The notes beneath the pieces were generated by a model. It had not been told where the DNA came from, did no database searches, and saw nothing but the letters and a program-made list of their open reading frames with translations. Shown here in pieces: positions 574 through 50,885 of a stretch of DNA of 64,000 nucleotides. Within the stretch, counting starts at the first letter, position 1; each line of letters opens with the position of its first letter. The position numbers were made by a program, and so were the translations under genes. The stretch is from an uncultured Candidatus Saccharibacteria bacterium (GTDB lineage Bacteria > Patescibacteriota > Saccharimonadia > CAILAD01 > BJGX01): positions 1,375 to 65,374 of the forward strand of contig CAZWVB010000002.1 in the NCBI GenBank assembly GCA_964637185.1. Direction: 5' to 3'.

Positions 574-611
574 GTCTTATTCCTCACTCATATATATATG
601 ACTATTATACC

Positions 612-13600: not shown

Positions 13601-16100
13601 GCCCGCTTGCAGCAGAACTCTCGCCAAACGCAGCTGAATAGAAATTGTTTGCTGTCGTATTTATGCCAAAAGCGACTGAGTTATTACCGCTGCTTTGGTT
13701 AGCTCGTGCGTTATTACCATAGGCAAATGAATAGGTATTGTAAGCTATCCCAGTACCACCAGCAAACGAAGCTGTTCCACTTGCAGCAGCACTATTTGTT
13801 GAAAAAGAACCGTCGCCACTAGCAACAGAGTTATTTGCTGCAAATGAATATTGACCACTCGCTACCGAGCCATTACCACTAGCGGTGGCATAGTTGTTTG
13901 TGGCCTGAGTGTTGACACCCCAGGCAAAAGCATCTTGGGCATTGGCCAATGTACTTTGGCCAAGTGCAGTAGACCATGTCCCACTAGCAGTAGTAGCATT
14001 TCCAAAGGCGATTGATCCGGTGCCACTGGCAGTGCCAGTATAGCCCGCAAAGCCATATGCGCCGCTGGCCAGCCCAGAACCAGTTGAGAGGCTATAATCT
14101 CCACTGGCTGTGCTGGCGCCTAGTGCTGTTGACCCTCGGCCAGATGCAGTAGAGCCTTCGCCAAACACTGCTGAATAAAAGTTGTTAGCTTGGGTATTGA
14201 TACCAAAAGCCACCGAATTATTACCCGATACATTGTTTGCACGAGCGTTCTGGCCAAAGGCAAACGAATAAGCATTGGCAGCTGTACCTGTTCCGCCGGC
14301 AAAAGAAGCGCCGCCGCTGGCGGTGCCCCCTGCAAAAGCCACCGCACTACCTCCATTAGCAACACCGCCAGCTACACTAAAATCATAGTTGGTATCAAAG
14401 TAGGCACGTTGGACACCATTGGTGCGAATTCTGAAATCTTGATTGTTATTAGTGCCAATATAGTCGCCTGCTCCTACTACATTCCCAGTCAGCAACCAGC
14501 CTGGAGTTGACACGGAAAAACATTGGAAATAACTTCCACCATTTTCAGAACATTGGAATGATCCAGCCCCCGAGTCGTAGTAAAAGCGACCTGTACCGGC
14601 GGGTGCCACAGCTATCCCCGTAGTACCATTTACAGTCACGGCACCAGCACCAACATTTAGAAGTGAGCTTGGCGTACTTGTCCCCACCCCGACTCGTTGA
14701 TTTAACGTATCTACATCAAGTACAACAGTAGTGTCATCTGCCTGACGAACTTGAAAAGCGTCAGTAACGTTACTATCCGGGCTTACATATATTGGCCGCT
14801 GGGTAGCACCGCCAACTACTCCAATCTGATACCCACCAGCTATACCAGCACCACTAAACTGAATTGCATACGGATCAATAATGCCGGTAACGTCTAAATC
14901 TCCATTGACACTGAGCGCCTTGCCGCCAACAGGTGCGCCGCCAATACCCACTTCACCGGCTGTATTGATAGTAAGTCGAGTGATCCCTCCTGTTTCGAGT
15001 TCTAAATTATTCCCATCGTTAGTACCAACTACCAAAGTTGCACCTGTGCTATTACCACCATCACATATTATTGTAAGTGATCCTGGACAAGCCGAGTCAA
15101 AATTAATTGCCAGGTTGCCAGCAGCAGTCAATCGGCCTTGGGCATCGACAGTAAATGTGGCCACTTGGGTTGAGGAACCATAACTACCTGCCGTAACAGC
15201 TGTATTATCCAAATTGAGAGTAATATTGTTGGTTGCAGATGCCGTCGAACTAAGACCAACACCACCTAGTACAGAAAGTGTATCACCTTGTGAAATTGTT
15301 TGGCTCGGTCCAATATCGGCTGCCGCGCTAAATAAATTACCTCCGGTTACTATACAGGTTGGACAGCTAAAATCAACCGTATTTATCCCTGTACTAGCCA
15401 CAATCGGGCCAGTACCGGTAAGAGTAACAGCTGGCCCGGTTTGGCCATTGATAGAGGTAATATTCCCACCTCCACCACCAGCAGCTACACATGAAAAACT
15501 ACTACCATTCCAAAATAATGCTTGGCCACCAACACAGGTTGGTGAATTTATGCTAATCGTACCGGTCGTAGTAATTGGTCCACCTTGTAGCCCGTTTCCA
15601 GTGTTAATTTGAGTAACTGATCCAGCTCCGGCAGGTCCCTGTGAACCTTGCGGACCCTGCGCGCCCGTTGTTCCTGGTGATCCGGCAGGCCCAGTCGGTC
15701 CCTGAGGGCCAGGTACGTTAGATGTATTGTTATTGGTGATTTGTTGATTAATTTCTTGGTTGGTAAGCTGAGTCTGGCTTATAAACTGTTGTAATTGGGG
15801 GCTCAGTTGCTCAACCGTAACACTCCCAACTGATAATTTAGCCCCACTGATGGTTCCATTTGGGATGTTATTAATAGTAGTAAACGTACTGGTCTGGCAA
15901 TTGTTCCTAATACCTAAAAAACGCATATACCAAACATCACTACATAAACCGCGCAACAATATAATCACTATTAATAGCAAGAATGCTAGACCTATCAAAA
16001 GCCAAATCAGCCAATGCGACTTTTTGGTGATCTCGTTATATTCAGATTGGTGATTTAAATTACTCGATTGTTGCACGGTCTTCCAAAGCTTATATACCAA
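10617..16100 (-). CDS. Giant (1827 aa) type-II membrane-anchored fibre protein. It carries a collagen-like triple-helix segment, phage-tail-fibre-like SxAxG repeats and a Peptidase S74-type intramolecular chaperone domain.
   Basis: N-terminal cytoplasmic stretch then one TM helix (HWLIWLLIGLAFLLLIVIILL). Gly-X-Y repeats (GPQGPTGPAGSPGTTGAQGPQGSQGPAG). Long arrays of the ~14-aa unit STAWG-N-ASG (as in phage tail fibre repeats). Near the C-terminus, CTSDESLKTNIVDMN…LQPITYQWK matches the S-x4-K…N-I auto-cleaving chaperone motif of endosialidase-type tail spikes. About 130 further residues share a C-terminal module with the next gene. Confidence 0.8.
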   Translation of the reverse strand: MVYKLWKTVQQSSNLNHQSEYNEITKKSHWLIWLLIGLAFLLLIVIILLRGLCSDVWYMRFLGIRNNCQTSTFTTINNIPNGTISGAKLSVGSVTVEQLSPQLQQFISQTQLTNQEINQQITNNNTSNVPGPQGPTGPAGSPGTTGAQGPQGSQGPAGAGSVTQINTGNGLQGGPITTTGTISINSPTCVGGQALFWNGSSFSCVAAGGGGGNITSINGQTGPAVTLTGTGPIVASTGINTVDFSCPTCIVTGGNLFSAAADIGPSQTISQGDTLSVLGGVGLSSTASATNNITLNLDNTAVTAGSYGSSTQVATFTVDAQGRLTAAGNLAINFDSACPGSLTIICDGGNSTGATLVVGTNDGNNLELETGGITRLTINTAGEVGIGGAPVGGKALSVNGDLDVTGIIDPYAIQFSGAGIAGGYQIGVVGGATQRPIYVSPDSNVTDAFQVRQADDTTVVLDVDTLNQRVGVGTSTPSSLLNVGAGAVTVNGTTGIAVAPAGTGRFYYDSGAGSFQCSENGGSYFQCFSVSTPGWLLTGNVVGAGDYIGTNNNQDFRIRTNGVQRAYFDTNYDFSVAGGVANGGSAVAFAGGTASGGASFAGGTGTAANAYSFAFGQNARANNVSGNNSVAFGINTQANNFYSAVFGEGSTASGRGSTALGASTASGDYSLSTGSGLASGAYGFAGYTGTASGTGSIAFGNATTASGTWSTALGQSTLANAQDAFAWGVNTQATNNYATASGNGSVASGQYSFAANNSVASGDGSFSTNSAAASGTASFAGGTGIAYNTYSFAYGNNARANQSSGNNSVAFGINTTANNFYSAAFGESSAASGRAATALANGTASGDYSLATGSGIASGAHSFAGYNSTASGTGSIAFGNTNTASANWSTALGQSTLASAQDAFAWGQSTQATNIYATASGNGSVASGNASFASNTSVASGQYAFSLNAGAASGYESFAGGEATQAAGTRSVALGYNTKAGTISGNENIAWGNTTIANGGQSTAWGINTQANGSRSTAWGNGAIAFVGTEAATAWGAGTAQNSYATGFGGSNAIGYESTAWGESSDASGMRSTTWGFDNNATNSESTAWGNANTASGDRSTAWGYQNTSAGPISTAFGQANTTTTINDTVWGVGNLTNAGAGCPFGERATAWGSSNQSLCTDSTAFGNSTIASGSRSTAFGDDTNATGAGATAFGYQTTASGSYSLAIGRQTVASADAAVSFGANTQALSADDFAWGVGTIADSSGTPFGASATAWGSGSYAHARRATAFGLGTVASGDTSTAWGQETTASAGRATTWGYLNIASGGDSTVWGRNNQAQNSADTTWGSGNIVNSSALFGEGATAWGLGNQAYYGASTAFGTGTLANNRRATAFGLNTTASGDSSLAFGSSNTASGDRSTVWGDTNVASAGFGTAFGQGNQVSGLLDTAWGSGNVTNGGLNCPFGFGATSWGAGNQSTCTDSTAFGTNTTASGNASTAWGISTIASNNYATAWGDNTEASGNESTAFGRDIIVSGSNSVGIGLNAGVGTVSQSNTMAIMGGSVGIDTLSPAFKLELTDTSTTNVTRFNGSAGTQCTVVTGTGWSCTSDESLKTNIVDMNVLGTLAKLGALQPITYQWKGDYEAWVAAGSDPLTEPSTQYGFTAQQVEQYLPEVVQTDSITGLKTINYGYLNTFMIAGLKEAQAQLAALQTRIDLSTPGLITITDDVVLNGGLTVNGTSTINGSETHNALATYNGLVHFTGTANFDGTTNVNGRLQLGGNNVGNAAVSAGNTSTHVSFSTAFSAAPNISLTPKDFVNGQYRATNVTTTGFDIELNTVQASTTSFYWQAF

Positions 16101-23232: not shown

Positions 23233-23853
23233 CTACTTCCTAGTTTTGCCGGCTAGTTTTAGTATCAGCTCAATCAGAACGCCTAGCACACCGCCTAATA
23301 TCAGTAGTACCAATAGTAGCCAGTTCGGTAGCGGGTAACCATAGACTCGTGCTGCAAAATACACTACTAGTCCCATGCCTATGCCAACAACTGCGCCACC
23401 GATCAGTACGGAAGGACGCAGTATTGTTTTTTCGGCAGCATTACTAACTGTTTCTACAACAGGATTGTGAACAACTTTGGAAAAAGCCCTACTGCCAGCT
23501 GGCAACTGTGTTTGTATTTTGCCAAGTTCTTTTTTGTAGACGCGTTTTTGCTCGGCTTTGGTCAAAGGCGTCTTTGGCTTTTTCTCAACTTCCTTAGCTT
23601 TTTCAGACTTCTTTTCTTCGGCTTCTTTGGATTTTTCCTGCTTACGAGCTAGATCAGACTCTTTTTTCTCCAATTCCGCTTTTATCTTGCGTTCAGCAGC
23701 TTCTCCCTTGCGGGCTAGATCAGCTTCGTCACGTTTTTGTTCAGCCTTAGATTTTTCAGCTGATCGATTACGCTCAAGACTTTCGGAGCTACTTTTGGAT
23801 AGCTTAGCCTCAGATTCTTGTCGTTCTACTAATTTCTCTTCATCCGCCGCCAT
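23233..23853 (-). CDS. K/E-rich coiled-coil protein with two C-terminal transmembrane helices.
   Basis: 206 aa. About 110 aa of charged low-complexity sequence (EKKESDLARKQEKSKEAEEKKSEKAKEVEKK), then VLIGGAVVGIGMGLVVYFAARVY and LLLVLLILGGVLGVLIELILKLAGKTRK. The start overlaps the stop of the upstream gene by 1 nt. Confidence 0.5.
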   Translation of the reverse strand: MAADEEKLVERQESEAKLSKSSSESLERNRSAEKSKAEQKRDEADLARKGEAAERKIKAELEKKESDLARKQEKSKEAEEKKSEKAKEVEKKPKTPLTKAEQKRVYKKELGKIQTQLPAGSRAFSKVVHNPVVETVSNAAEKTILRPSVLIGGAVVGIGMGLVVYFAARVYGYPLPNWLLLVLLILGGVLGVLIELILKLAGKTRK

Positions 23854-26210
23854 TACTTGCCGCCTCCCTCATTTAGTGTTTCTAGTAAATCTAGCTCACG
23901 CTTCATGAGACGATTCTTAAGCAGTAAGAATATCGACATGGCAGCAAGTAAGCCCATCACTATCAGACTAGCCGCTGCGCCTGTTCGCGGTAATTGAGCA
24001 GCAGTACAGTCAAGCCTCTTGGCTGGGTTCACACTAATCGGAGTCACCACTACATTGCCCTCAAATCGATCTTCCATCTGACAATCGTAGTTCTGATTAT
24101 CGGTTGGCTTTTGTGCAGTTGTTGGGATTGGATCTTTGACTTGTACGGTAAAGCTCTTAGTGATATATGTCGGATCATTTGGGTTGGTACTGACAGGTAT
24201 GTCTACAGCAGGCCAGACCAGTGAAGTTCTTGTAGCTTCTACTTTCAACTCCGCGCCGCCTTTATCTATCACATCGGCATACATGATGATATCTGAGATA
24301 TCGTCTTTGAATATATAGCCTTTGATGGGAGCAGTACCTATATTGGCAAGACCAATAGTATAGGTTAGCTTGTCTCCTGCTCTAGCCGTAGCACCGTTAG
24401 CATCAGTCGGTTTACCATCACTTGTCAATATGGTTAGATTCTTGACAGTCTTGCGGAACACATGCTGCTCAAACTTCAGTGGTAGCGTACAGGTCGGCTT
24501 GCTAGAAGTCACTGACCCATCAGCTCCAACAACTGTTACTTTGGCTGTATAGCTACCTCCATTCTGATAAGTGTGCTTGATATCTTTGATCTCAAGAGCG
24601 CCACTTGTCACTGTTTGCTTGCCACCATCTCCGAAGTCAAACTGGTATTCCTTGATAGTGGTGTTGAGCGCACCTCCTCGAGCTGTGAAATTGACGTCTA
24701 CAGGAACAGTATCACTGGTGGTGGGTGTGCCAGTGAGACTGACACAAGTAATATCTTTCGGCTGAGGTGTGACTACAAAAGGTACTCCACAGCTTGGCCT
24801 GTCTGGTGCAGGATTGCCGTTCACGCTATCATACACTCGTAATAGTATCAGATAACTACCTGGAGCGGTGGTTTCAAACTGAGTCGCACTAAAACCGGCT
24901 GGATTCTGAGAATTTGCTAATGGGTCTACCAGGGTATTTTGGGTTGGGAAGGTGTGGATTATTCTTGATTTTGCTTCTTGATATGTTTTGCCGTTTTGCG
25001 TATACGTCGGCCCTGCTGTGCCTGCGGGCACCTCCTTGAGGTATAAGTATTCAAATTTTCGAGCGAATACATCTGGTCCAATTTGCCCTTCTTGGAGCGC
25101 TGTACCTTTGATAAATGGTGTAAATGGTGCTTGGAACGTAAAGTTGTTGTTCTGATTGGCCATGTCCAGCCCACCACACACTAGGGTCTTAGGAGCCTGC
25201 ACCTGTACATCTCGCGAACATTCTCCTGTACCACTTCCGGAGGCAAAATATTTAACGCCATTTACATCGAAGAACACTACTAATCTGATCTGATAATTAC
25301 CAGGCTGATTGAATTTGAAAACCCTGAGTGTACCGTCTTCAAAAACTCCAGGCGACTTTTGACCAACGCCACTTGCGGATTGAAGTGGTGGGCTCACTTG
25401 GCTATCAGTAACCAGTTGGCCATCCTTGTACACTCCATACGCCATATCAACCAATTCACCTGGATCCACATTCTGACCATTGGCATAACCTCTATAGCCA
25501 ATCTCTGATCCAGCCGCGATAGGCCCAGGCACAGTGTAATTTAATGAGGCACAGCTAATTTCCTTGGGTGGTGGAGGTGGTGGTACTGGCAAAAGAATAA
25601 TATTACCACATTCTAGGATGACTCCCCACTGATACCATCCTTCAGGTATGCCAGGCCCACCATCTGTTACGTGGACAATTTGGCTTGGATCAGTACCACC
25701 CATAAGCGCATTAAAACATATACCGTCATTGGCATTTGGATTACCCCAGCGATGTACCGATGATCCTACCCAAATATTTGGCTGCCATTCTACTGAAGTG
25801 TTGCCACCATCTTGGCTACGACCCATGGAAATCCAGTTGTCACCCTCACGTGCGCCCCCTCCGTTTGGGCCACAAACTGAGACTCCAGCTGCCTGCATCT
25901 TTTCTCGGCTGATACCAAGCCGACCAAAAACTTGATTAATTCCGTCACGATTCTGATCCCAAACCGCCGATATAAGCGAGTCTTTATTGAAAGGGGCACC
26001 TGTTATCAGGTCAAAGGGGCTTGCTGCAAAGCTTGGTTTGGGCGGAGCTAGAAGTGTAAATATTTGGAACAGCAAAAGCCCGATAATAAATATGCTAGCG
26101 ATACGTCTGGTAGCAGTCTCGGCTACTAGACGTTTTATATAGTAACCAATACGATCTGGTGACAGTCGCCCAGCAGACACCGAAGTCACAATATCTTTAA
26201 AGTTTATCAA
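23853..26210 (-). CDS. LPXTG (LPRTG) cell-surface protein with PKD-like and DUF11-like repeat domains.
   Basis: 785 aa. N-terminal signal-anchor (IASIFIIGLLLFQIFTLLAPP). PPPPPP linker. PKD-type motif (YQFDFGDGG…TYQNGGSYTAKVTVV). DUF11-like segment (LTYTIGLANIGTAPIKGY). C-terminus LPRTGAAASLIVMGLLAAMSIFLLLKNRLMKRE. Confidence 0.7.
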   Translation of the reverse strand: MINFKDIVTSVSAGRLSPDRIGYYIKRLVAETATRRIASIFIIGLLLFQIFTLLAPPKPSFAASPFDLITGAPFNKDSLISAVWDQNRDGINQVFGRLGISREKMQAAGVSVCGPNGGGAREGDNWISMGRSQDGGNTSVEWQPNIWVGSSVHRWGNPNANDGICFNALMGGTDPSQIVHVTDGGPGIPEGWYQWGVILECGNIILLPVPPPPPPKEISCASLNYTVPGPIAAGSEIGYRGYANGQNVDPGELVDMAYGVYKDGQLVTDSQVSPPLQSASGVGQKSPGVFEDGTLRVFKFNQPGNYQIRLVVFFDVNGVKYFASGSGTGECSRDVQVQAPKTLVCGGLDMANQNNNFTFQAPFTPFIKGTALQEGQIGPDVFARKFEYLYLKEVPAGTAGPTYTQNGKTYQEAKSRIIHTFPTQNTLVDPLANSQNPAGFSATQFETTAPGSYLILLRVYDSVNGNPAPDRPSCGVPFVVTPQPKDITCVSLTGTPTTSDTVPVDVNFTARGGALNTTIKEYQFDFGDGGKQTVTSGALEIKDIKHTYQNGGSYTAKVTVVGADGSVTSSKPTCTLPLKFEQHVFRKTVKNLTILTSDGKPTDANGATARAGDKLTYTIGLANIGTAPIKGYIFKDDISDIIMYADVIDKGGAELKVEATRTSLVWPAVDIPVSTNPNDPTYITKSFTVQVKDPIPTTAQKPTDNQNYDCQMEDRFEGNVVVTPISVNPAKRLDCTAAQLPRTGAAASLIVMGLLAAMSIFLLLKNRLMKRELDLLETLNEGGGK

Positions 26211-26279
26211 TGAAGTACCCTCATTAGTATTTGTATTCGATTGTATTACGAATCATAAGCTGGTTGCAAGCCCTGGCGG

Positions 26280-28784
26280 CTAATTATGAGAACTGTCACG
26301 ACCCATACCGCTACTGACAGCCTGACCAACTTGTGGGTCGCCATAGCTCCCACTATCCAGACTATGCATTATCTCGGCTGCTACTTCGCTCTTGGGCCGG
26401 CCGTACTTGCTACGCGACAAATCCTTCATAGCCTGTAGTATCTCAGGGTTGGGAGTGCCGATAGGGGGCTGACAATCGAGTGAAAATGGTGTGGTCGGCA
26501 CACCATTGGCCATGATTTTAGCAACTAGCTTGAAATTGGGTATATTGATCAGATCGTGTTTGTCGAATTGTGGCTGGTACTGCTTCTCCATGTACTCGGC
26601 ATCATCAGTACCAACACGAAAGGACGTCAGTGAACCAACATTGCCAAACACGGCATCGCGGACCTGCTCATCCAACTGGCTAATAAACTGATTGGCAACT
26701 ATCAGGCTCAGGCGGTATTTGCGAGCTTCAGACAAAATGGTGGCAAAACTATCTGTGCTAAAATTCTGGAATTCATCGACATAGACCGAGAAGTCTGGTC
26801 GTTGTTCCTCGGGAGTATCAGCCCTACTCATGGCTGCCATCTGGAATTTGATGACCATAATCATACCCAGCAGCTTGGCGTTGAGATCACCAAGCAGACC
26901 TTTGCTGAGATTTACCAGCAATATTTTGTTGGTGTCCATCACCTCACGGAATTTGAATGCCGAGTGCTTCTGACCAATGATGTTACGCATGATCTCATTG
27001 TTGGCAAACGCACCGAATTTGGATACAAACCAGCCTAGCATCTCAGATTTGCTATGCGCATCAGTCTGAGCCATCTCGCCGGTCCAGAAATCCTGTACTG
27101 TCGGGTCAGTGACATAGCGGAATTTTTTCTTGAGATACTCGTCATCAGTAAACACTTTGGGTATCTCGATAAAAGTGCCGCCTTCTGGATCGGCCATCAC
27201 TGTAAGAGCGGCATTGCGAAACCAGTGTTCGTAGCGAGGCCCGATAATACCTTGATGCTGAGGGTCATACAGTTTGTACAACATTTGGATTGCTTCTTGG
27301 ATCAAGAAGTCCTTTTGCTCTGGCTTGTCTGGATCGTACTCCATCATATTAAATCCGAGCGGTACCTCGGTATCACCGGGGCTAAAGTAGATGACATCCT
27401 CTGCTCGCTCTGGTGGGATCATACCCAACATCTTCTCGGCAGTATCACCGTGAGGGTCGATAAAAGCAAACCCTTTGCCAGCCGCTGCATCTTGCAACAT
27501 CAGATTCTCTAGGAAGGTTGATTTACCAGTACCTGTTTGACCTATGACATACAGATGGCGTCGACGATCATTGTCACTCAGATAGATTGGGGTTTGGGTG
27601 GCACGATAAACATTGGTACCCAATAAGAGACCCGTCGCTGGCATGCCGCTCGGTGCAGCGATCTCCTTGGTGCCGCGTCGCTCTATCGGGGTAGCAAGCT
27701 CGAGCAACTCACTTGGTATATGAAATATAGTTGCGAGCTCGGCGGAGTTGAGAATTAACTGATGGGCAAAAAAAGTTTTCTCACGAAAAAAACGGAAAAT
27801 AAAGTTTGTCGCAAGCTCCTGTGGCGAGTCAGCTTTGACGAACTTAAAACGGTTAGCATCATACTGTGCCAATTGTGCAAAACCAAGTAGCATGTCCTGC
27901 AATATCAGCTTGGCTCGAGCAGGATCGTCTGAGCTAGCTACTAGCCGGATATTACACTCAAATGCCGGTAGACGCACCTTATCCTCCACCAGCTCGCCTC
28001 GTTTTTTGTCTAGCTCATTGGGTTCTTTGCTTTTCTTCTCATCTTCTTTTGTGCCAAGAGGTGATCGTATAACATCACCAGCAAAATCCAAAGCTTGTGG
28101 AGCAAATCCCTGTTTCTTTTTGGTGAAGTAATATTTGGCTCGACGATGTGCTCGTTTGACCCAACGGTAGGGGGCTGGACGTACCAATATTTGTATAGCC
28201 GCAGCATCACCAGCATCTAGATTGGACAAGCCAGCCAGCATGCCGGCGATCGCATCGCGCTCGGCGGTCTTATAAGTGCTGATGGGCAAGATGGCATCCT
28301 TAGCCAATTTGAGCTCACCGCCAGTCACACCGGCGATCTTGCTCACCTGGGAAAATAGATTGATTTCTTCTTTGCGTATCACCTGTACACCAGGGTAGCC
28401 TGCAGCTAAAGCTTTAGATATGGTGGATATCAAACTAGCCGGCACCGAAGTGTAAAAGTAGATCTGCTTGGCTTCTGCTATTATTTCAAATGCTATATGT
28501 CTACGGCCATAAACCTCAGCTTTTTCACTTACAATACCTGAGAGCAAATTGAACATCTGCTCCGCTCGAGACACGCTCTCTTTGATCATCTCACGTTCAT
28601 CACGATTTTGTGCTTCATTGATTTCTTGAGGTGGTAATTTTATCAAGAGTGGTACAAACTTCAACGAGCGCTCGACTTGCTTGCTGTGACGCACGATGCG
28701 ACGGTAGACGAAGAAACCAACAAAAATCAGTACTACCACAAACAGAGCAAACAAAACACTCATGAAGATCACAAATTGGTTCAT
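26280..28784 (-). CDS. Membrane-anchored P-loop NTPase of the VirD4/TraD/HerA-FtsK-like (AAA_10/TraG-D_C type) family.
   Basis: 834 aa. N-terminal TM helix (MNQFVIFMSVLFALFVVVLIFVGFFVY). Walker A HLYVIGQTGTGKSTFLENL followed by FIDPHGD. Walker B FSVYVDEFQNF. The architecture (TM helix + about 400-aa spacer + ATPase) resembles conjugative coupling proteins. The start overlaps the upstream gene by 4 nt. Confidence 0.6.
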   Translation of the reverse strand: MNQFVIFMSVLFALFVVVLIFVGFFVYRRIVRHSKQVERSLKFVPLLIKLPPQEINEAQNRDEREMIKESVSRAEQMFNLLSGIVSEKAEVYGRRHIAFEIIAEAKQIYFYTSVPASLISTISKALAAGYPGVQVIRKEEINLFSQVSKIAGVTGGELKLAKDAILPISTYKTAERDAIAGMLAGLSNLDAGDAAAIQILVRPAPYRWVKRAHRRAKYYFTKKKQGFAPQALDFAGDVIRSPLGTKEDEKKSKEPNELDKKRGELVEDKVRLPAFECNIRLVASSDDPARAKLILQDMLLGFAQLAQYDANRFKFVKADSPQELATNFIFRFFREKTFFAHQLILNSAELATIFHIPSELLELATPIERRGTKEIAAPSGMPATGLLLGTNVYRATQTPIYLSDNDRRRHLYVIGQTGTGKSTFLENLMLQDAAAGKGFAFIDPHGDTAEKMLGMIPPERAEDVIYFSPGDTEVPLGFNMMEYDPDKPEQKDFLIQEAIQMLYKLYDPQHQGIIGPRYEHWFRNAALTVMADPEGGTFIEIPKVFTDDEYLKKKFRYVTDPTVQDFWTGEMAQTDAHSKSEMLGWFVSKFGAFANNEIMRNIIGQKHSAFKFREVMDTNKILLVNLSKGLLGDLNAKLLGMIMVIKFQMAAMSRADTPEEQRPDFSVYVDEFQNFSTDSFATILSEARKYRLSLIVANQFISQLDEQVRDAVFGNVGSLTSFRVGTDDAEYMEKQYQPQFDKHDLINIPNFKLVAKIMANGVPTTPFSLDCQPPIGTPNPEILQAMKDLSRSKYGRPKSEVAAEIMHSLDSGSYGDPQVGQAVSSGMGRDSSHN

Positions 28785-29286: not shown

Positions 29287-30768
29287 CTAGTAGTGTATCC
29301 AGACTGGGGTACCAACTGGTGCCCAATTCCAAAGAAATGCTGCTGTTCCCGTCAACAGATTTACACAGCCGTGGCTGCCATTGTAGTGATATGCCTGGGT
29401 GCCGAACCACGACGGTGGTCGCCATGTTGCATCGTGCAGCCCATATCCGCCAGAGAATGGCATCCAATAAGATACAAATACATTGTAGTCATAGCCATAG
29501 ACAGCACCATTCAGATAGCGATTGCGTTCTTTGGTGTATATAGCAAATTGGCCCGTGACGGTTGGTGCGCCATCTTTGCCACTCACCACTGGGGCCGTCA
29601 TTACTACCTGGCCATTTTGCCAGGCGTAAAGTTGCTGATTGCTAAGATTAATCTCTATATACTGAGGATAATCCAGCCCGCCGATAGCCCCGCCAATGCG
29701 TTTGTATTCTGTTTTGTATGGCACTGGCGAGCTGCTAAGCGCAACAGTGGTGTTTTGGTTGTTGATAATAGCGGTATAGATAGCATCGGCCGCGGCAGAC
29801 TGATTGATAGCAGAACCGTCCTTACCGGCCTGTGTCTCTGACTCTTGCCCATTTAGCACGGTTATCTTACGGTTGGTAGGCGGTATATCCACCTGATTGG
29901 CTACAGATTGCAGATAGCCTAATATCTCAGCCTTGGATATATCAACCTTAAGTGCTTTCTGGCTGCCTTCTACCGAAGGCTCAAATACCAACCAATGCCC
30001 GATGTCGGCTCGACTGGGTGAAAAACTACGACCATTGTAGTTGAGAATATAGTTGCGACTCAAATAATTGTTGGTCTGGCTAAGGGCAGCTTCAGCAATT
30101 GACTTATTTATCGGCGCCTGAATAGCGGTAGGCCCAATGCTCACTGTAGTGTCACGCCCATCAGCCATTGCGCTGGTCAACACATTGGCTAACTGGCTTG
30201 GATCAATAGCAATTCCTGGTTGATCAGCAACTACACTAGGGTTACCATCCTCTATAACGATGGTGGCATTGACAGGATCCTTGCCCTTTTCCCCAACGGC
30301 CGCTGTTGCAAATTTCTTGAGTTGTGCCTGGTCAAATCTATAAGCTAACCCCAATTGCCCACGCTTGTGCATATCTAACAAACCAGTAAGTGCTATTGGG
30401 CCATTACGACCGACACTATAAGCTAGATCAGCTGTCTGAACTGGATCATAGCTAGCACCAAAATCACTGTTATTGGCTATTATTGCCTCATTACCAACCT
30501 TTACTGTAACGGTTCGAGTACCAGACTTCTTGCGTAGTAGTTCAATAGCCTGAGCTCTGGTTTTAAAACTCAGATCTGTGCCTGCCACACTCACGCCAGG
30601 ATATATCACACCAGAAGTAACACTAGCCACCACCGCATTGGCTAACACTAAAGTTCCTATCACTCCTAACAACACAAAAGCCAAACGGGCATATAGGTGA
30701 GGCTTTTGGCCGGATTTACTAAGCCCCTTGGGCAAACTCAAAAAATGTTTATAAGCAGGCACAGTCAT
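29287..30768 (-). CDS. L,D-transpeptidase (YkuD-family catalytic domain) with N-terminal membrane anchor and YoaR/VanW-like domains.
   Basis: 493 aa. N-terminal TM (LAFVLLGVIGTLVLANAVVASV). The C-terminal catalytic motif …YVFVSYWMPFSGGYGLHDATWR…GSHGCVNL (His…SHGC) is typical of YkuD L,D-transpeptidases. Confidence 0.75.
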   Translation of the reverse strand: MTVPAYKHFLSLPKGLSKSGQKPHLYARLAFVLLGVIGTLVLANAVVASVTSGVIYPGVSVAGTDLSFKTRAQAIELLRKKSGTRTVTVKVGNEAIIANNSDFGASYDPVQTADLAYSVGRNGPIALTGLLDMHKRGQLGLAYRFDQAQLKKFATAAVGEKGKDPVNATIVIEDGNPSVVADQPGIAIDPSQLANVLTSAMADGRDTTVSIGPTAIQAPINKSIAEAALSQTNNYLSRNYILNYNGRSFSPSRADIGHWLVFEPSVEGSQKALKVDISKAEILGYLQSVANQVDIPPTNRKITVLNGQESETQAGKDGSAINQSAAADAIYTAIINNQNTTVALSSSPVPYKTEYKRIGGAIGGLDYPQYIEINLSNQQLYAWQNGQVVMTAPVVSGKDGAPTVTGQFAIYTKERNRYLNGAVYGYDYNVFVSYWMPFSGGYGLHDATWRPPSWFGTQAYHYNGSHGCVNLLTGTAAFLWNWAPVGTPVWIHY

Positions 30769-30801: not shown

Positions 30802-33531
30802 CTAGCAGACTTTGATATCAGCCAGAGATTCTAATTGAGATAATTTTGCGATAAATTTTTGTACGGCAGCATTGATATTCTTGGCATCAGGTTTTTCGCC
30901 AAGGTCCATTACTAGCTGTATGGTAATTCTTTTGCGGCGCTCTTTTTTGAGCTCGTCATCTTGATACTCACCAATATATTTCGCAATCACGATATCGCTT
31001 TGTTTGACAGCTACTGTACTAAAATCTTGCCATAACACTAACTGATTGCATTCCACCGTCAAATCCCTAAGCACGAGAGGGTAAGCAGGTAACTTTCGAA
31101 TAGTACGCTCTACCACCTGACTTCGCAAATCAGCAATATTGATTTCCAAATATGATAGCTCACGACGCACACCAAACGCAGTTGATACACGTGGATGTAG
31201 TTGTCCTATCACGCCTATCTCATGACCTTGATATTTAACAATCGCCTGACGGCCCTTTATCATGTCAGGGCGGTCACTACGATGCAACAGGCTATTATCA
31301 AACCCAATTTTATCTAACACGGCTTTGAGCCTGGTGTAGCTATCACTGCCAAAAGAAGTGGCTGCCAATGCCCAATTCTCACCAACTTTTGTGGGTTTGT
31401 TGAGCCAACTTTGTATTCTTGAGATCTCAAAAAATAGTCCGGATTCAGTGTCGGCTTGATTATTGCGAACCACCTGTAGATGACTTGGCATCAAACTAGT
31501 GCGGATCAAAGCCTGTTCTTTTTGCAACGGGTTGGCAACTGCTAGCGCATTATCAATATTTACACCAACCATATTTAGTGCCTCTTCAGATACAAAAGAG
31601 TATGTTACAACCTCTTGAGCTCCAATGTCTACCAACTGCTGTTTAAGTCTAAGAATATTAATAAGCTGCTGATGAGAGCCTGTCGGGGTAGGTGGCAAAC
31701 TTGGCAAAGTGTCAGGCATATTATCATAGCCGACTATTTTAACTGATTCCTCTATCAAGTCTTCTTCCAACTTGATGTCACTACGCCACCACGGCACCTG
31801 GACGGCTATGATATGGTTGAAACTATCCAAATATCTACGGGCCCCGATGTAGCCTCGACGTTGCTTAAATTCCTGCAAAGATGTATATCTTACTTTGCCA
31901 ACACTTTTTTTGGCTTCTATAACCTTATTGCTACCCAAAAACATGGCTACATGGCTGACATTGTGACGCTGTTTGGCCAATTTGGGGTCACTGATGCCAC
32001 CTGCTACAAACAACAGATCACCTGGCTTGAGTCTATCTCCGTCAGTAAGCTCACGACCGTTGGTAGACTGCTGATAAGCACTGTGGCCTATCATCAAACC
32101 TAGCTTGGAGTAAATCCGCTCGGTTAGGTAGCTACAATCAAATGCTTCCTCGCCATCCACTTTATACGACGCACCCCACTTATATGGTTTGCCGAGGTGT
32201 TTTTTGGCCTCAGCTGTCAGCGAGAAATGCTCAGCTTCAAAGCCACGCTTTGTCAGGCCATCCAAGATTTGTTTTTCATCCACCTCCATGCCTAGTATCT
32301 TCTCAGCCCGGCGCATTCGCATTGCAGCCAGCTGGACCCAAGGCCAGACATACAATTGATCGTGCGGTGCCTCAAGCATCTCAGCATCACAAATTTCGGT
32401 CATCAATTCTACTAGTCGATTGGCAGCGACCGGTTGAAGGGGGAGTGGTAAGCCGCGCTCAAATCTAGAGCTTGCTTCGGTGCGCACACTATTACGTAGC
32501 GCCGATTTACGCACGACAGTTTTATCAAAATTTGCCACTTCTAAAACCACCTCTGTGGTGTTCGTATCGCATTCGGTATCACTGCCACCGATCACGCCAG
32601 CAATGCCAACGACCTTTTTACTATCGGCTATTACCAAGTCATCTTTCACCAGTTGACGCGTTTTACCATCCAAGCAGGGAAGTGACTCGCCAGCTTTTGC
32701 CCATCGTACCTGCAGATCGTCTTGTAGTTTATTAGCATCGTAGGCATGGCTGGGCTGCCCATATTCCAACATTACAAAATTGGTAATATCAACCACTGGG
32801 TTGATACTACGTAGCCCGTTTGACTCCAAGTTATCCACAAGCCACTTGGGTGTTGGCTTGGCATTGTTTAACTTAAGATGCACCGTAATCATCCTGCTGC
32901 AAACTTTGGTATCCTCTATTTTTACTCGCTCTTTTTTATCGTAGTCCAAGTCCTCCTGCTTGGGTTCTGCCAACTGGCACGGCCTATGGGAATTGGCCGA
33001 AATTTCACGGGCCAATCCAATCAATGACAAGGTATCCCAACGATTCGGATGGGTCTTGATGTCCAGGATATCTCCAAAATTCTCTATGTCGCACAATGAT
33101 TTACCAAGCGGTAGGTCAGGGGAAAGTTCCATCAGCCCGTTGTGGTCATCGTTAATACCAAGCTCTGCTGCCGAGCACAGCATGCCCTCGCTCAGCTCGC
33201 CACGAATCTTAGCTTTGGCTATTTTGGTTTGGTCGGGCAACACTGCGCCAACTTTTGCCAATACCACAATTTGATCTTCTGCTAAATTGGGTGCGCCACA
33301 CACAATGTGATAGGTTTTTTTACTGTCGGTCACTAGCGCTAGCCTCAGTCGATCGGCATTTGGATGTGGGTTTACTTCCAATACTTGTGCAACTATTACA
33401 AGCTCGTCCCAGATCGGTGGCTTGATTACTTCTTCAAGTTCGATTTCTGTTCGTTCTATAGCCTGCGCAATTTCATCAGTGGATAAGGCTGGCTTGAGAT
33501 ATTTATTGAGTGAATATATGCTGATTTTCAT
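30802..33531 (-). CDS. pheT: Phenylalanine--tRNA ligase beta subunit, carrying a ~130-aa NlpC/P60-like insertion in the B5 domain.
   Basis: 909 aa. N-terminal tRNA-binding and B3/B4 regions. The B5 signature is split: …ILDGLTKRGFEAE [insertion] …VQVPWWRSDIKLEEDLIEESVKIVGYDNMP. The insertion KPYKWGASYKVDGEEAFDCSYLTERIY…GDLLFVAGG…SHVAMFLGSNKVIEAKK has the NlpC/P60 Cys…His…polar arrangement. The C-terminal FDX-ACB-like domain is present. Confidence 0.85.
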   Translation of the reverse strand: MKISIYSLNKYLKPALSTDEIAQAIERTEIELEEVIKPPIWDELVIVAQVLEVNPHPNADRLRLALVTDSKKTYHIVCGAPNLAEDQIVVLAKVGAVLPDQTKIAKAKIRGELSEGMLCSAAELGINDDHNGLMELSPDLPLGKSLCDIENFGDILDIKTHPNRWDTLSLIGLAREISANSHRPCQLAEPKQEDLDYDKKERVKIEDTKVCSRMITVHLKLNNAKPTPKWLVDNLESNGLRSINPVVDITNFVMLEYGQPSHAYDANKLQDDLQVRWAKAGESLPCLDGKTRQLVKDDLVIADSKKVVGIAGVIGGSDTECDTNTTEVVLEVANFDKTVVRKSALRNSVRTEASSRFERGLPLPLQPVAANRLVELMTEICDAEMLEAPHDQLYVWPWVQLAAMRMRRAEKILGMEVDEKQILDGLTKRGFEAEHFSLTAEAKKHLGKPYKWGASYKVDGEEAFDCSYLTERIYSKLGLMIGHSAYQQSTNGRELTDGDRLKPGDLLFVAGGISDPKLAKQRHNVSHVAMFLGSNKVIEAKKSVGKVRYTSLQEFKQRRGYIGARRYLDSFNHIIAVQVPWWRSDIKLEEDLIEESVKIVGYDNMPDTLPSLPPTPTGSHQQLINILRLKQQLVDIGAQEVVTYSFVSEEALNMVGVNIDNALAVANPLQKEQALIRTSLMPSHLQVVRNNQADTESGLFFEISRIQSWLNKPTKVGENWALAATSFGSDSYTRLKAVLDKIGFDNSLLHRSDRPDMIKGRQAIVKYQGHEIGVIGQLHPRVSTAFGVRRELSYLEINIADLRSQVVERTIRKLPAYPLVLRDLTVECNQLVLWQDFSTVAVKQSDIVIAKYIGEYQDDELKKERRKRITIQLVMDLGEKPDAKNINAAVQKFIAKLSQLESLADIKVC

Positions 33532-33540
33532 ATTGTTAGC

Positions 33541-34521
33541 CTAAAATTGTGATAGATACCTCAGATTGGGTCGCCAGAGTTGGCGAATATCATTGAGCCC
33601 ATACCTAATAGCTGCAAAACGCTCAGGCCCCCAACCAAAGGCAAAACCACTGTATTTCTCAGGATCTATTCCCCCATTGTTCAACACTTGTGGGTGCACC
33701 ATGCCAGCACCACCGAGTTCTAGCCATTTTCCATTGTGCCAACCGTCAAATTCTACTGATGGCTCAGTGTACGGAAAGTAGTTGGCGCGAAATCTGATCT
33801 TAGCATCCTCCCCAAGTAGTCGCTGCATTACTCTAGTCAATGTGCCTTTAAGATCAGACATACTTACACCCTCGCCCACTACGAGGCCTTCCACCTGATA
33901 AAACTCCCATGAGTGAGTAGCGTCTTCGTCTTCATTGCGAAATACCTTACCTGGTACTATTATTTTAAATGGCGGCTTGTTTTGCTCCATATATCTGACT
34001 TGCATACCTGATGTATGGGTGCGTGGCAGTAGATCTAGCTTGGGGGTATCTATGTAGAAGGTATCTTGCATATCACGAGCAGGATGATCAGGTGCAATAT
34101 TCAAAGCCTCGAAGTTATACCAGTCAGTCTCGATTTCATTACTATCTACGATAGCAAACCCCAACTCTGTAAACACCTGATATGTCTCAGCAAGCATTTG
34201 AGTGGTTGGGTGTAGAGCGGCCTTGTTGTTTTCTATTTTACCTGGGGCTGATACGTCTATGGGGTCAAATTCCAAATCAGATTCGATATTTGCCAATCTA
34301 GCTTGAAACAACCCCTCCAGCTTTGACTTGAGTTGATTGATTTGCGCACCTGCTACTGCGCGTTCACCCTGATCTGTCTTTTTTAGGTCTTTCAGGAGAC
34401 GAGCCACCAAACCATCACTCCCGAGATATTGGCTTTTTACATCCAAAAGCTCATTCTTAGTTGTGGCAGCATCGGCCTTACTTTTGGCCTTTCCTAGATC
34501 AGCTTCCCATTGTTTATTCAT
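33541..34521 (-). CDS. pheS: Phenylalanine--tRNA ligase alpha subunit
   Basis: 326 aa. Class II motifs (…HPTTQ…, NIAPDHPARDMQDTFY, GWGPERFAAI…) with typical spacing. Lies immediately upstream of pheT. Confidence 0.9.
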   Translation of the reverse strand: MNKQWEADLGKAKSKADAATTKNELLDVKSQYLGSDGLVARLLKDLKKTDQGERAVAGAQINQLKSKLEGLFQARLANIESDLEFDPIDVSAPGKIENNKAALHPTTQMLAETYQVFTELGFAIVDSNEIETDWYNFEALNIAPDHPARDMQDTFYIDTPKLDLLPRTHTSGMQVRYMEQNKPPFKIIVPGKVFRNEDEDATHSWEFYQVEGLVVGEGVSMSDLKGTLTRVMQRLLGEDAKIRFRANYFPYTEPSVEFDGWHNGKWLELGGAGMVHPQVLNNGGIDPEKYSGFAFGWGPERFAAIRYGLNDIRQLWRPNLRYLSQF

Positions 34522-37841: not shown

Positions 37842-38693
37842 CTAATCTTCTACAACTCTACCTTTTGGATAGCTACCCAGCACAATTAGCTCATCTGCCA
37901 TATCATATACTTCTCCCAGTAACTGGTAGATGCCGGGCTGATCTATCCCGGCCTCAAAATCTATGTAGAAATAGTAATGCCATATTCTGCCGATATGAGG
38001 ACGTGACTCAAGTTTGCTTAGATTGATATTGCGTTTTGCAAATACACCCAGCAGATTATACAGCGCTCCAGGTTTGTCCTTGAGTGTTAGTACGATGCTA
38101 GTTTTATTGGCACCATCGACAGGTTTATTCGACTTATTTAGTACTATAAATCTAGTGTAGTTTTGATTGTTAGCCTCGATATGATCAGCCAGCACTGACA
38201 TGCCATGCAGATGAGCCGCTGCCTCGGAGCCTATCGCTGCCTGCGACTTGTCTCCAGCTTGAGATACAAACTCAACACTTTCGGCAGTATCATTGCGCTC
38301 AAACAACTCAGCTTGGGGTAGTTTCTCATGTAGATAGCTCTGTGCCTCAGATAGCGCTACAGGGTGCGAATAGACTCTATTAATATCTTTGAGATTCACA
38401 CCTTCAAATCCGATCAGTTTCAGCTCAATTTGCATGTACAGCTCAGCCACGATATTCAATTTACTTTTGCGCAACAGATCATATACTTCTGTAATACTAC
38501 CTGCCAATGAGTTTTCGATTGCTACGATTGCATAATCAGCTTTGTTGGTGGATAGCGCATCAAAAGTCTCTGGAAACCATTCACATGGCACCAAACCAAT
38601 GTCTTTTCCAAATATAGTATGCGTCGCTAGAGCATGGTAAGACCCTTCTTGGCCTTGTATAGCGACTCGTTTTGGTACTGCCATGACTGGCAA
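37842..38693 (-). CDS. pheA: Prephenate dehydratase (PDT catalytic domain + ACT regulatory domain)
   Basis: 283 aa. VAIQGQEGSYHALA at the N-terminus, and a C-terminal ACT domain with LESRPHIGRIWHYYFYIDFE (the ESRP motif). Confidence 0.85.
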   Translation of the reverse strand: MPVMAVPKRVAIQGQEGSYHALATHTIFGKDIGLVPCEWFPETFDALSTNKADYAIVAIENSLAGSITEVYDLLRKSKLNIVAELYMQIELKLIGFEGVNLKDINRVYSHPVALSEAQSYLHEKLPQAELFERNDTAESVEFVSQAGDKSQAAIGSEAAAHLHGMSVLADHIEANNQNYTRFIVLNKSNKPVDGANKTSIVLTLKDKPGALYNLLGVFAKRNINLSKLESRPHIGRIWHYYFYIDFEAGIDQPGIYQLLGEVYDMADELIVLGSYPKGRVVED

Positions 38694-50504: not shown

Positions 50505-50885
50505 TGGTGGAGCTGGAGGGAATCGCACCCTCGTCCACATGGCTAAGTCAGTACCGTCTACAAGCGTAGTCGCATCTAATTGGTTTGAGAAGCTAGTGGT
50601 ATCGAGAGATCCGACAAAAACAACCGCTCGCTTCCCCTATCTTTGGTCTTAGCTTGGTCATGAAGGGGCTAACCAAGAGCAATCAGATAAATGACGCGTC
50701 ATACCCCATCTGATGTCAGGTAGTCAGCGGCTTACGACAATTAAGCGTAGGCTGGTGCAAGACTAGAGTTAACTAGGTTGCGCATAAGTGATTTGGCACT
50801 TATAGATTGGTGAGCCAGCTAACGTGTAGCTCAACCCGGCTTGCTAGTACTGTCAAAGATCCACATGTCGAAGCTAATCAGCCCC
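50505..50885 (-). ncRNA. ssrA: Transfer-messenger RNA (tmRNA, SsrA), 381 nt with encoded CCA.
   Basis: Minus-strand 5' end GGGGCUGAUUAGCUUCGACAUGUGG (compare E. coli GGGGCUGAUUCUGGAUUCGACGGG). Minus-strand 3' end GGACGAGGGUGCGAUUCCCUCCAGCUCCACCA (T-arm + acceptor + CCA). The 5' GGGGCUG pairs with the 3' CAGCUCC. Candidate tag frame after an A/U-rich tract: GCC AAA UCA … GCC UAC GCU UAA (…LAPAYA*). A flanking promoter and terminator are also present. Confidence 0.85.

Follow-up and report, generated by a model that had tools for sequence, protein, structure and literature searches.

An NlpC/P60-type domain nested in the B5 domain of the phenylalanyl-tRNA synthetase beta subunit of Saccharibacteria and some other Patescibacteria

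The NlpC/P60 gamma-D-glutamyl-diamino-acid endopeptidases, exemplified by 7cfl, 8v3w_H, the YkfC-like 3h41 and E. coli MepS/Spr, are secreted proteins, lipoproteins or phage-tail components whose substrates are the sacculus or released stem peptides, and often carry SH3b or LysM domains. The beta subunit of bacterial phenylalanyl-tRNA synthetase (PheRS; gene pheT, protein PheT) is represented by the solved chains 3pco_B, 1pys_B/2iy5_B and 4p71_A (P. aeruginosa), which share the order B1/B2, B3/4, B5, catalytic-like module and anticodon-binding domain, and in which B5 is contiguous. Here we describe a pheT gene that combines the two families. It lies in a stretch of 64,000 nucleotides, referred to below as the window, from an uncultured Candidatus Saccharibacteria bacterium (assembly GCA_964637185.1, contig CAZWVB010000002.1, positions 1,375-65,374 of the forward strand; GTDB lineage Bacteria; Patescibacteriota; Saccharimonadia; CAILAD01; BJGX01). 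The domain order of the product is that of canonical PheRS beta, but the B5 hairpin is broken by a 135-residue NlpC/P60 domain. This domain has the fold of the endopeptidases and the same register of Cys, His and third residue, shares with them the Y-x-W-G, D-C-S and C-terminal ARR motifs, and differs from them in sitting within a cytoplasmic aminoacyl-tRNA synthetase (aaRS).

Three further systems invite comparison. A passage of PMC10318531 cites E. coli Gsp (2IO7) and trypanothione synthetase-amidase, in which a cytoplasmic papain-like CHAP amidase is fused to an ATP-dependent ligase. The Gsp amidase is N-terminal, belongs to CHAP, the sister family of NlpC/P60, and reverses the product of its own ligase, whereas the PheRS insert is nested and no such substrate relation is evident. 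The editing domains of aaRSs (CP1 of Leu/Ile/ValRS, INS of ProRS, B3/4 of PheRS) likewise place a hydrolase within a synthetase, sometimes nested, but their folds are unrelated, they deacylate mischarged tRNA, and the window PheT retains the canonical editing site. RipD (Rv1566c, 4jxb), a secreted peptidoglycan-binding and non-catalytic NlpC/P60 protein, is a model for those sublineages whose insert has lost Cys and His, whereas the window copy has the catalytic residues. Both parts of the protein are members of well-known families; it is their nested combination that was not found in the literature searched. Full-text searches across 8 million papers returned no description of a PheT with NlpC/P60; targeted look-ups in a classification of papain-like peptidases, a catalogue of aaRS domains, a transposon-sequencing study of Patescibacteria and a paper on protein families of the candidate phyla radiation revealed none either; and the papers retrieved that combine "phenylalanyl-tRNA synthetase" with "Saccharibacteria" concerned pheS counter-selection plasmids or protein clustering. 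In public annotation such proteins appear as "PheT-related protein" or "C40 family peptidase" (mislabelled).

An NCBIfam profile search identifies the window protein as bacterial PheT at equivalog level (TIGR00472, pheT_bact, E 7.7e-175; 583.4 bits, with the cut-off at 402.65), and its domain set is complete save for a weak FDX-ACB and a split B5 (Table 1). The profile alignment falls into two stretches, the first of which stops at residue 435. The preliminary description, which was made from the letters alone, had spoken of a continuous frame with intact PheT flanks rather than a frameshifted fusion, and the single uninterrupted open reading frame (ORF) together with the TIGR00472 score agrees with this. 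The full-length AlphaFold2 model, built on a 117-sequence alignment, has a mean predicted local distance difference test score (pLDDT) of 90.9 and a predicted template modelling score of 0.65. In Foldseek it matches all solved bacterial PheRS beta chains (E 1e-68 to 1e-52), including 4p71_A (E 1.2e-68), 3pco_B, 1pys_B and 7k98_B; the chains matched measure 775-845 residues and all are devoid of the insert. FDX-ACB is very divergent both here and in many other Saccharibacterial PheTs, while insert-bearing PheTs from outside the Saccharibacteria score about 1e-27.

In place of a contiguous B5, Pfam recognizes only positions 38-67 of the B5 profile, at residues 573-602. In an alignment of 269 full-length PheTs, with and without insert, the B5 anchors "GF" and "P..R.D" are separated by 148 residues in the window protein versus 10-14 in insert-less Patescibacteria PheTs, where the two strands are linked by a beta-hairpin turn of 10-14 residues (e.g., KTKKIGIQLLVEI). 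The net gain of approximately 135 residues measured from the orthologues is congruent with the interruption of about 130 residues initially reported. In the AlphaFold2 full-length model hairpin strands 1 and 2 (Table 1) are paired, and the NlpC/P60 domain stands between them with pLDDT above 90; since these strands flank it, the domain is nested at the hairpin tip. Residues H435, F436 and S437 are invariant across 117 homologues. The PheRS beta subunit thus contains a complete papain-like cysteine-hydrolase-type domain of the NlpC/P60 (C40) family at the tip of its B5 beta-hairpin.

The assignment to NlpC/P60 is supported at several levels. Pfam PF00877 matches the insert with E 1.4e-15 and 57.6 bits (gathering score 23) over profile positions 1-104 of 105, which removes the doubt, raised at the outset, that profile similarity might be absent. 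NCBIfam models for NlpC/P60 also match, below their full-length protein cut-offs, as is expected for a single domain. A phmmer search of residues 435-573 against the PDB retrieved 8v3w_H (C. difficile diffocin hub-hydrolase CD1368; 2e-11), 7cfl_A (autolysin Acd24020; 1e-10) and 3h41_A (B. cereus BCE_2878; 8e-10); identity to the PDB homologues is 32-34%, with alignment over the full domain. When residues 425-600 were modeled alone the pLDDT was 94.2. The best Foldseek match of the insert model is 7cfl_A (E 1.5e-9; target-normalized template modelling score 0.83; root-mean-square deviation 2.6 Å), and the top 50 matches are NlpC/P60 domains exclusively, which places the insert within the papain-like alpha+beta fold, where the Cys sits on an N-terminal helix that packs against the beta-sheet bearing the His. 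No Pfam or NCBIfam match to aaRS editing or trans-editing families (YbaK/INS, AlaX, DTD, CP1) was found in residues 437-570, and the fold search returned NlpC/P60 only.

All motifs listed in the preliminary description are present with the spacing it gave: K451-W452-G453, ten residues, then F464-D465-C466-S467-Y468 (codons checked), GDLLF at residues 504-508, SHVAMFLG at 526-533 and IEAK at 538-541. Profile, PDB sequence, predicted structure, fold search and orthologue alignment concur with its reading of the insert as a papain-like NlpC/P60 domain that has a Cys/His pair and, in third place, a polar residue. Aligned with the PDB homologues, Cys466, His527 and Glu539 stand in catalytic register in the window copy. 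The insert is a basic domain on an acidic protein, with an isoelectric point (pI) of 9.6 versus 5.45 for the PheT backbone. An intein or homing element was considered and rejected: the insert is NlpC/P60 only by Pfam, has a papain-like fold and shows no HINT or homing-endonuclease signature, and the junctions (...EHF/SLT... and ...LDS/FNH...) have neither a Cys or Ser at +1 nor His-Asn splicing motifs and vary by lineage.

No signal peptide was found in the window PheT; its N-terminus, MKISIYSLNKYLKPALSTDEIAQ..., is the canonical PheT B1 start and contains no hydrophobic segment. Pfam detects no SH3b or LysM domain in it, and the export and targeting features of secreted cell-wall hydrolases are hence missing. 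Since the synthetase has no signal peptide, the domain is made in the cytoplasm.

Table 1. Features of the window; coordinates are positions in the 64,000-nucleotide stretch and residues are those of PheT
Feature	Coordinates	PheT residues	Strand	Remarks
pheT, phenylalanyl-tRNA synthetase beta subunit with nested domain	30802..33531		-	909 residues, uninterrupted ORF
tRNA_bind		45-144	-	Pfam
B3_4 editing domain	32389..32877	219-381	-	Pfam E 4.4e-58; editing site intact by sequence
B5, N-terminal half	32224..32340	398-436	-	Ends in hairpin strand 1, residues 432-436 (...EAEHF)
Inserted segment, NlpC/P60 (MEROPS C40) papain-like domain	31822..32223	437-570	-	Net insertion ~135 residues
NLPC_P60 Pfam match	31837..32193	447-565	-	PF00877
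Cys466, predicted catalytic nucleophile	32134..32136	466	-	Motif F-D-C-S-Y; aligns with catalytic Cys of CD1368, Acd24020 and BCE_2878; codon checked
His527, predicted catalytic base	31951..31953	527	-	Motif S-H-V-A-M-F-L-G; aligns with catalytic His of PDB homologues; codon checked
Glu539, predicted third (polar) triad residue	31915..31917	539	-	Motif I-E-A; aligns with third catalytic His ("IHA"/"LHA") of 8v3w_H, 7cfl_A and 3h41_A
B5, C-terminal half	31726..31821	571-602	-	Opens with hairpin strand 2, residues 574-579 (IIAVQV), then PWWRSDI
CLM (catalytic-like module)		606-799	-	Pfam
FDX-ACB, C-terminal anticodon-binding	30835..31089	815-899	-	17.7 bits, under Pfam cut-off of 31.1
pheS, PheRS alpha subunit	33541..34521		-	9 bp upstream of pheT; tRNA-synt_2d E 5.7e-93, Phe_tRNA-synt_N
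Predicted membrane protein, 157 residues	34518..34991		-	No Pfam match; stop overlaps pheS start by 4 bp
L,D-transpeptidase, membrane-anchored	29287..30768		-	33 bp downstream of pheT; YkuD E 1.1e-25, PG_binding_4 E 5.3e-20
Prephenate dehydratase (PDT, ACT)	37842..38693		-	Same strand-run as trpS, pheS and pheT
VirD4/HerA-like ATPase (T4SS-DNA_transf, DUF87), PKD-domain protein, 1827-residue ORF	23853..28784 and 10617..16100		-	Downstream of L,D-transpeptidase
Transfer-messenger RNA (tmRNA)	50505..50885		-	Rfam 115.5 bits; tag peptide AKSLMRNLVNSSLAPAYA

The chance that this architecture results from an error in gene calling, or from a chimera made in sequencing or assembly, is next to nil, the sole support for this being the prior expectation that metagenome-assembled genomes (MAGs) contain chimeras. 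The GC content across the insert (0.44-0.48) is the same as that of the flanks, giving no compositional break in the continuous frame and no hint of a recent acquisition, and AlphaFold2 folds the whole protein with the hairpin strands paired. The 90% cluster of the window PheT has 11 members drawn from NCBI, JGI, Logan and ENA; five of them (JGI, Logan) are full length and depart from the window protein at 4-15 sites, with I538V as the only difference inside the insert. Such near-identical proteins from independent assemblies answer the concern over assembly error voiced in the preliminary description. Hundreds of independent assemblies or sources have the same architecture, and the artefact reading is refuted by these cluster members, by the 120 homologues and the species-genome scan described next, and by the co-divergence of insert and backbone.

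All 120 best homologues of the window protein (41-61% identity) are PheTs with the insert, measuring 871-949 residues when full length; nearly all carry a precomputed NLPC_P60 match, and those that are named belong to Candidatus Saccharibacteria. A scan of one genome per GTDB species, seeded with nine active inserts and detecting only copies with intact HLGKPY or FDCSYL motifs, gave 304 confirmed matches. The best 68 of these 304 span both B5 flanks and come from MAGs labelled Saccharibacteria, Saccharimonadia or Patescibacteria; the next matches (34-41% identity) cover the domain alone and are free-standing NlpC/P60 genes of Sarcina, Clostridia, Frankiales and a Parcubacterium.

Searching 1.84 billion cluster representatives with the insert alone revealed further nested-domain PheTs, whose backbones are 30-35% identical to the Saccharibacterial ones and whose lengths are 923-934 residues with the N-terminal tRNA-binding domain or 820-844 residues without it. 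A profile search seeded with these distant proteins added more insert-bearers, some of them named "Candidatus Paceibacterota" or "Patescibacteria group"; relatives without the insert, of about 680 residues (e.g., Nealsonbacteria) and about 800 residues (e.g., Moranbacteria), were interspersed among them. The placement of the distant set outside Saccharimonadia is based on the backbone identity of 30-35% and on few taxon labels, namely one mis-binned "Aenigmarchaeota", one "Paceibacterota" and "Patescibacteria group". Patescibacteria-type pheT genes also occur under archaeal names in L053 (DATIHE010000064.1) and P0279/P0280 (Candidatus Nanoarchaeia, Candidatus Aenigmarchaeota), most likely through binning or labelling errors.

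The orthologue alignment proposed in the preliminary description reveals an inherited architecture, which has become fixed in Saccharimonadia and has a patchy distribution elsewhere in Patescibacteria, where insert-less relatives have 10-14 residues at this point. The preliminary description called such a domain within a synthetase "very unusual"; it is absent from the solved PheRS chains, but in Saccharimonadia it is the normal state of PheT, and in other Patescibacteria it recurs patchily. Compensation by the insert for a lost N-terminal tRNA-binding domain was rejected, as that domain is present in some and absent from others both among PheTs that carry the insert and among those that do not.

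When all active inserts are compared in pairs, identity of the insert rises with identity of the backbone and is slightly above it in every bin; for instance, a backbone identity of 0.40-0.45 corresponds to an insert identity of 0.50. This argues for mostly vertical inheritance, under constraint at least equal to that on the rest of PheT. Among the 120 close homologues, Cys466 is kept in 101 and His527 in 102, and the 59 insert-bearing PheTs that do not belong to this Saccharibacterial set retain both residues without exception. Overall, the Cys/His pair, whose conservation the preliminary description had wished to see examined, is present in 158 of the 178 PheTs with an insert, even where backbone identity falls to about 25-30%. 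Y450, G453, D465 and D505 are invariant or nearly so among the copies retaining Cys and His, and R566 is found in 176 of the 178 inserts, the other two having Lys.

Twenty Saccharibacterial PheTs have lost one or both catalytic residues, most of them both; single substitutions are seen in P0061 (His to Gln) and P0070 (Cys to Arg). These "dead" inserts are shortened, with 130-177 residues between the B5 halves, yet recognizable, and the backbone tree distributes them over at least four groups. Of the two options offered in the preliminary description, an inactivated interaction module or a moonlighting activity, the former fits several sublineages but not the window copy or some 85% of Saccharibacterial copies, in which the catalytic residues are present. 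The domain has also come and gone as a whole: on the neighbor-joining (NJ) tree of backbones its presence and absence require at least 12 changes. P0290 (798 residues, with insert) and P0296 (679 residues, with a 13-residue hairpin instead) have 79% backbone identity and a common pheS-pheT-gyrB-dnaE synteny; given that P0289 and P0179, of the same group, carry co-diverging inserts, the insert was lost in P0296. The pheT of P0291 is a mosaic, its backbone being nearest to P0179 (69%) and its insert plus upstream B5 half nearest to P0302 (68% versus 39%), which suggests recombination between pheT alleles that carried the insert along. These patterns indicate that catalysis is selected in most lineages and dispensable in some. 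Lineages that have lost the catalytic residues or the domain itself show that it is dispensable for aminoacylation, and the whole domain is dispensable for PheRS function.

The substrate subsites of this family have been modeled on the structure of DvLysin/YkfC, where D-Glu is bound by Tyr322, Ser334 and Ser352 and L-Ala lies between Trp324 and Arg350 (PMC4600125). In the window insert the corresponding Y450, W452 and S467 are kept, with H483 in place of the Arg and A485 in place of the last Ser, so that the recognition residues of the gamma-D-Glu-A2pm/Lys (A2pm, diaminopimelate) amidase subgroup (YkfC/DvLysin/CwlT) are incomplete. Put as a motif, the Pro-Arg-x-Ser of known NlpC/P60 enzymes reads Gly-His-Thr/Ser-Ala in Saccharimonadia inserts. 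The third triad position in the 99 Saccharibacterial orthologues that retain Cys and His is Gln in 35, Glu in 20, His in 19, Met in 14 and Thr in 10; in other Patescibacteria it is mostly His. Non-Saccharibacterial copies lacking the N-terminal domain have Arg in 19 of 21 and mostly Ser (13 of 21). Tyr, Cys-Ser, Pro-Arg-x-Ser and the third His are kept in these shorter PheTs, in most other non-Saccharibacterial copies and in the stand-alone relatives considered below. The sequences point to an ancestral amidase that was probably of gamma-D-Glu type and whose specificity was probably altered in Saccharimonadia.

An NJ tree was built from 158 PheT inserts and 111 free-standing domains. Just four "free" sequences fall within its PheT clade; two of these are PheT fragments, and one is P0211, a protein of 146 residues. 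A search with P0211 retrieved 28 stand-alone proteins of 136-159 residues, with hydrophilic N-termini that leave no room for a signal peptide. This family (P0211, P0406-P0431), one member of which is named "C40 family peptidase [Patescibacteria group bacterium]", displays the motifs GKxYKYGA, FDCSS, LPR[ST] and GIGHVG, and has a sub-insertion (HYN.EFP.G) found also in some PheT inserts. Once its members were added, PheT inserts and stand-alone proteins formed one NJ clade, which makes them the closest non-PheT relatives of the insert; they are separate genes, and they keep the canonical Arg that Saccharibacterial inserts have lost. Mean identities agree with this to a modest degree: Saccharibacterial inserts have a mean identity of 0.40 to other PheT inserts versus 0.33 to free domains. 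Judged from these sequences, a cytoplasmic single-domain form of the predicted enzyme exists in Patescibacteria, which favors a function separable from tRNA charging.

Three loci of stand-alone homologues were examined for their neighbors. MiaA (tRNA isopentenyltransferase, IPPT) lies within three genes of the homologue in two of them (L089, 2286-3032; L090, 7477-8457), and in the third (L091) the neighbors are a lytic transglycosylase (SLT_2) and a cluster of mraZ, rsmH and a penicillin-binding protein gene.

Around pheT itself, the gene order in the window is trpS, a small membrane protein, pheS, pheT, L,D-transpeptidase, a hypothetical protein and type-IV-secretion-like genes. The pheS gene also adjoins pheT in 69 related loci, an adjacency that fits an alpha2-beta2 enzyme. 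The L,D-transpeptidase is probably in the same operon as pheT; a homologue directly follows pheT in 50 of the approximately 70 pheT-bearing loci examined, whereas gyrB takes its place in the non-Saccharibacterial loci. An association of the pheT locus with peptidoglycan is suggested by this arrangement, and nothing firmer.

The editing site of the window PheRS beta was compared with that of solved chains. Against E. coli 3pco_B, H262 corresponds to H265, G315 to G318, E331 to E334 and A353 to A356, and T250-N251 align with T-N of the T. thermophilus chain 2iy5_B (T249, N250). The editing residues of B3/4 are invariant or nearly so in 117 homologues, and the post-transfer editing site, as predicted from sequence, is intact. 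A role of the insert as substitute for a lost editing domain was ruled out on this ground.

The reading that we prefer, with belief and doubt in about equal measure, is that the domain is an active cytoplasmic cysteine amidase acting independently of aminoacylation, ancestrally of stem-peptide type and with its specificity altered in Saccharimonadia. Cys466-His527(-Glu539) would constitute an amidase, probably catalytically competent and independent of aminoacylation: an accessory enzyme, separable in function, that has become "trapped" within an essential protein expressed constitutively. The ancestral substrate was probably a stem peptide of the L-Ala-gamma-D-Glu type, as met in muropeptide recycling or scavenging or in precursor trimming; this is surmised from the retention of Tyr, Cys-Ser, Pro-Arg-x-Ser and His-His by non-Saccharibacterial copies and the stand-alone family. 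In Saccharimonadia the replacement of Arg and Ser by His483 and Ala485 would probably have moved specificity to another amide or ester.

A number of observations weigh against this reading. His stands for Arg in 78 and Ala for Ser in 86 of the 99 Saccharibacterial copies, which renders the canonical substrate doubtful in this lineage, and 24 of these copies have Met or Thr as third triad residue. Bootstrapping of a 107-taxon subsample recovered the joint clade of PheT inserts and stand-alone proteins in 13 of 100 replicates, which is weak support, and the stand-alone clade in 64 of 100. At the three loci examined the stand-alone homologues were not adjacent to pheT, and their contexts were heterogeneous. 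The synteny of pheT with the L,D-transpeptidase gene persists in L084, from a lineage with a dead insert, and is possibly mere inherited gene order. DvLysin cleaves UDP-N-acetylmuramic acid (UDP-MurNAc) peptide precursors (PMC4600125), and a cytoplasmic D,L-endopeptidase devoid of the specificity-restricting SH3b could attack the cell's own UDP-MurNAc-peptides. Lastly, an independent amidase gives no explanation for the choice of PheRS as its host.

A non-catalytic module, serving as a scaffold or as a ligand- or RNA-binding domain in which Cys and His are retained for binding or by inertia, is rather unlikely in our estimation. It might provide additional basic surface for tRNA or a partner, or sense a ligand resembling a peptidoglycan precursor and so couple translation to wall synthesis. 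At least four lineages retain the shortened domain after loss of Cys and His, and their copies conserve the core motifs G..IG, LKPGD.LF, G.Y.G and GARRY as well as the connecting HFS and FNH segments; the insert is basic and the dead versions are the most basic of all (pI 9.4 +/- 0.5); the non-catalytic RipD is among the fold matches; and the Met or Thr at the third triad position in some Saccharibacterial copies points the same way. NlpC/P60 domains are often basic in any case, however, and the Cys/His pair is retained in the great majority of insert-bearing PheTs, including every one outside the Saccharibacterial set, along with the oxyanion and neighboring residues Y450, D465 and S467, which is hard to explain without catalysis. 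Close relatives have moreover deleted the domain, so that no structural dependence of PheRS upon it is evident. Less probable again is that the domain acts on aminoacyl-tRNA, either as a thiol-dependent deacylase providing a second proofreading step (e.g., for non-protein or D-amino acids) or as an aminoacyl-transferase working through a thioester. Papain-like Cys-His chemistry does proceed via an acyl-thioester, and acyltransferases (LRAT) are found in the wider superfamily. The domain has kept its nested place in an aaRS over very long times, the basic charge would suit contact with RNA, the substrate-site residues in Saccharimonadia differ from those of canonical gamma-D-Glu amidases, an L,D-transpeptidase lies downstream, and MiaA, which modifies tRNA-Phe among others, is near two of the three stand-alone homologues. 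The intact B3/4 site, on the other hand, leaves no vacancy for a second editing activity, the close stand-alone homologues have neither an aaRS partner nor adjacency to pheT, the domain is dispensable in several lineages, and we know of no precedent for an NlpC/P60 domain acting on aminoacyl-tRNA. In the T. thermophilus complex B5 is reportedly not among the domains that contact tRNA.

A new aaRS-coupled catalytic site, which would use Cys-His on the PheRS product either as a second proofreading site or to transfer Phe to a stem peptide or another amine, strikes us as quite improbable; the altered substrate residues, the basic surface, the fixed position in PheRS and the L,D-transpeptidase downstream are compatible with it and do not demonstrate it, and the intact B3/4 site and the stand-alone homologues speak against it. 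We attach a similarly small likelihood to a neutral or selfish passenger, lodged in a tolerant hairpin, hard to remove, and persisting or spreading by recombination of pheT alleles. The patchy distribution with its at least 12 changes on the backbone NJ tree, the difference in presence between relatives with 79% backbone identity, the clear mosaic P0291 and the repeated decay of catalytic residues speak for a passenger. Against this, conservation of the insert equals or exceeds that of the essential backbone in all divergence bins; purifying selection on its catalytic and oxyanion residues is obvious; it has no HINT/intein or homing-endonuclease signature; and clean losses show that removal is possible, yet most lineages retain the domain.

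Some other features of the window deserve mention. Homologues of the 157-residue membrane protein are found upstream of pheS in 26 related loci. The genes downstream of the L,D-transpeptidase are probably a Patescibacterial type IV secretion-like cluster; the same genes follow in L084 and L088. Prephenate dehydratase is unexpected in this lineage: it catalyzes the last committed step of phenylalanine synthesis, and the source lineage is generally described as being without amino-acid biosynthesis. The tmRNA is the sole RNA family or tRNA-like gene detected in the 64-kb window.

The aaRSs are among the most conserved of proteins, and extra domains within them have repeatedly proved to be proofreading or non-translational. 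The domain described here has its catalytic residues preserved across a class of epibiotic, genome-reduced bacteria (Saccharibacteria/TM7) and parts of the remaining Patescibacteria. It may reveal an unrecognized cytoplasmic activity, be it stem-peptide recycling or another, in organisms that scavenge amino acids, and probably wall components, from their hosts. Were a tRNA-dependent transfer of Phe to prove true, translation and wall chemistry would be directly linked in ultra-small bacteria that depend on a host. The question is approachable by experiment, since there are Saccharibacteria in culture that are genetically tractable (PMC10633639). The pheT genes of this group constitute a natural experiment on the nested insertion, inactivation and loss of a domain in an essential gene, and the insert marks the lineage and might provide a selective handle on Saccharibacterial PheRS.

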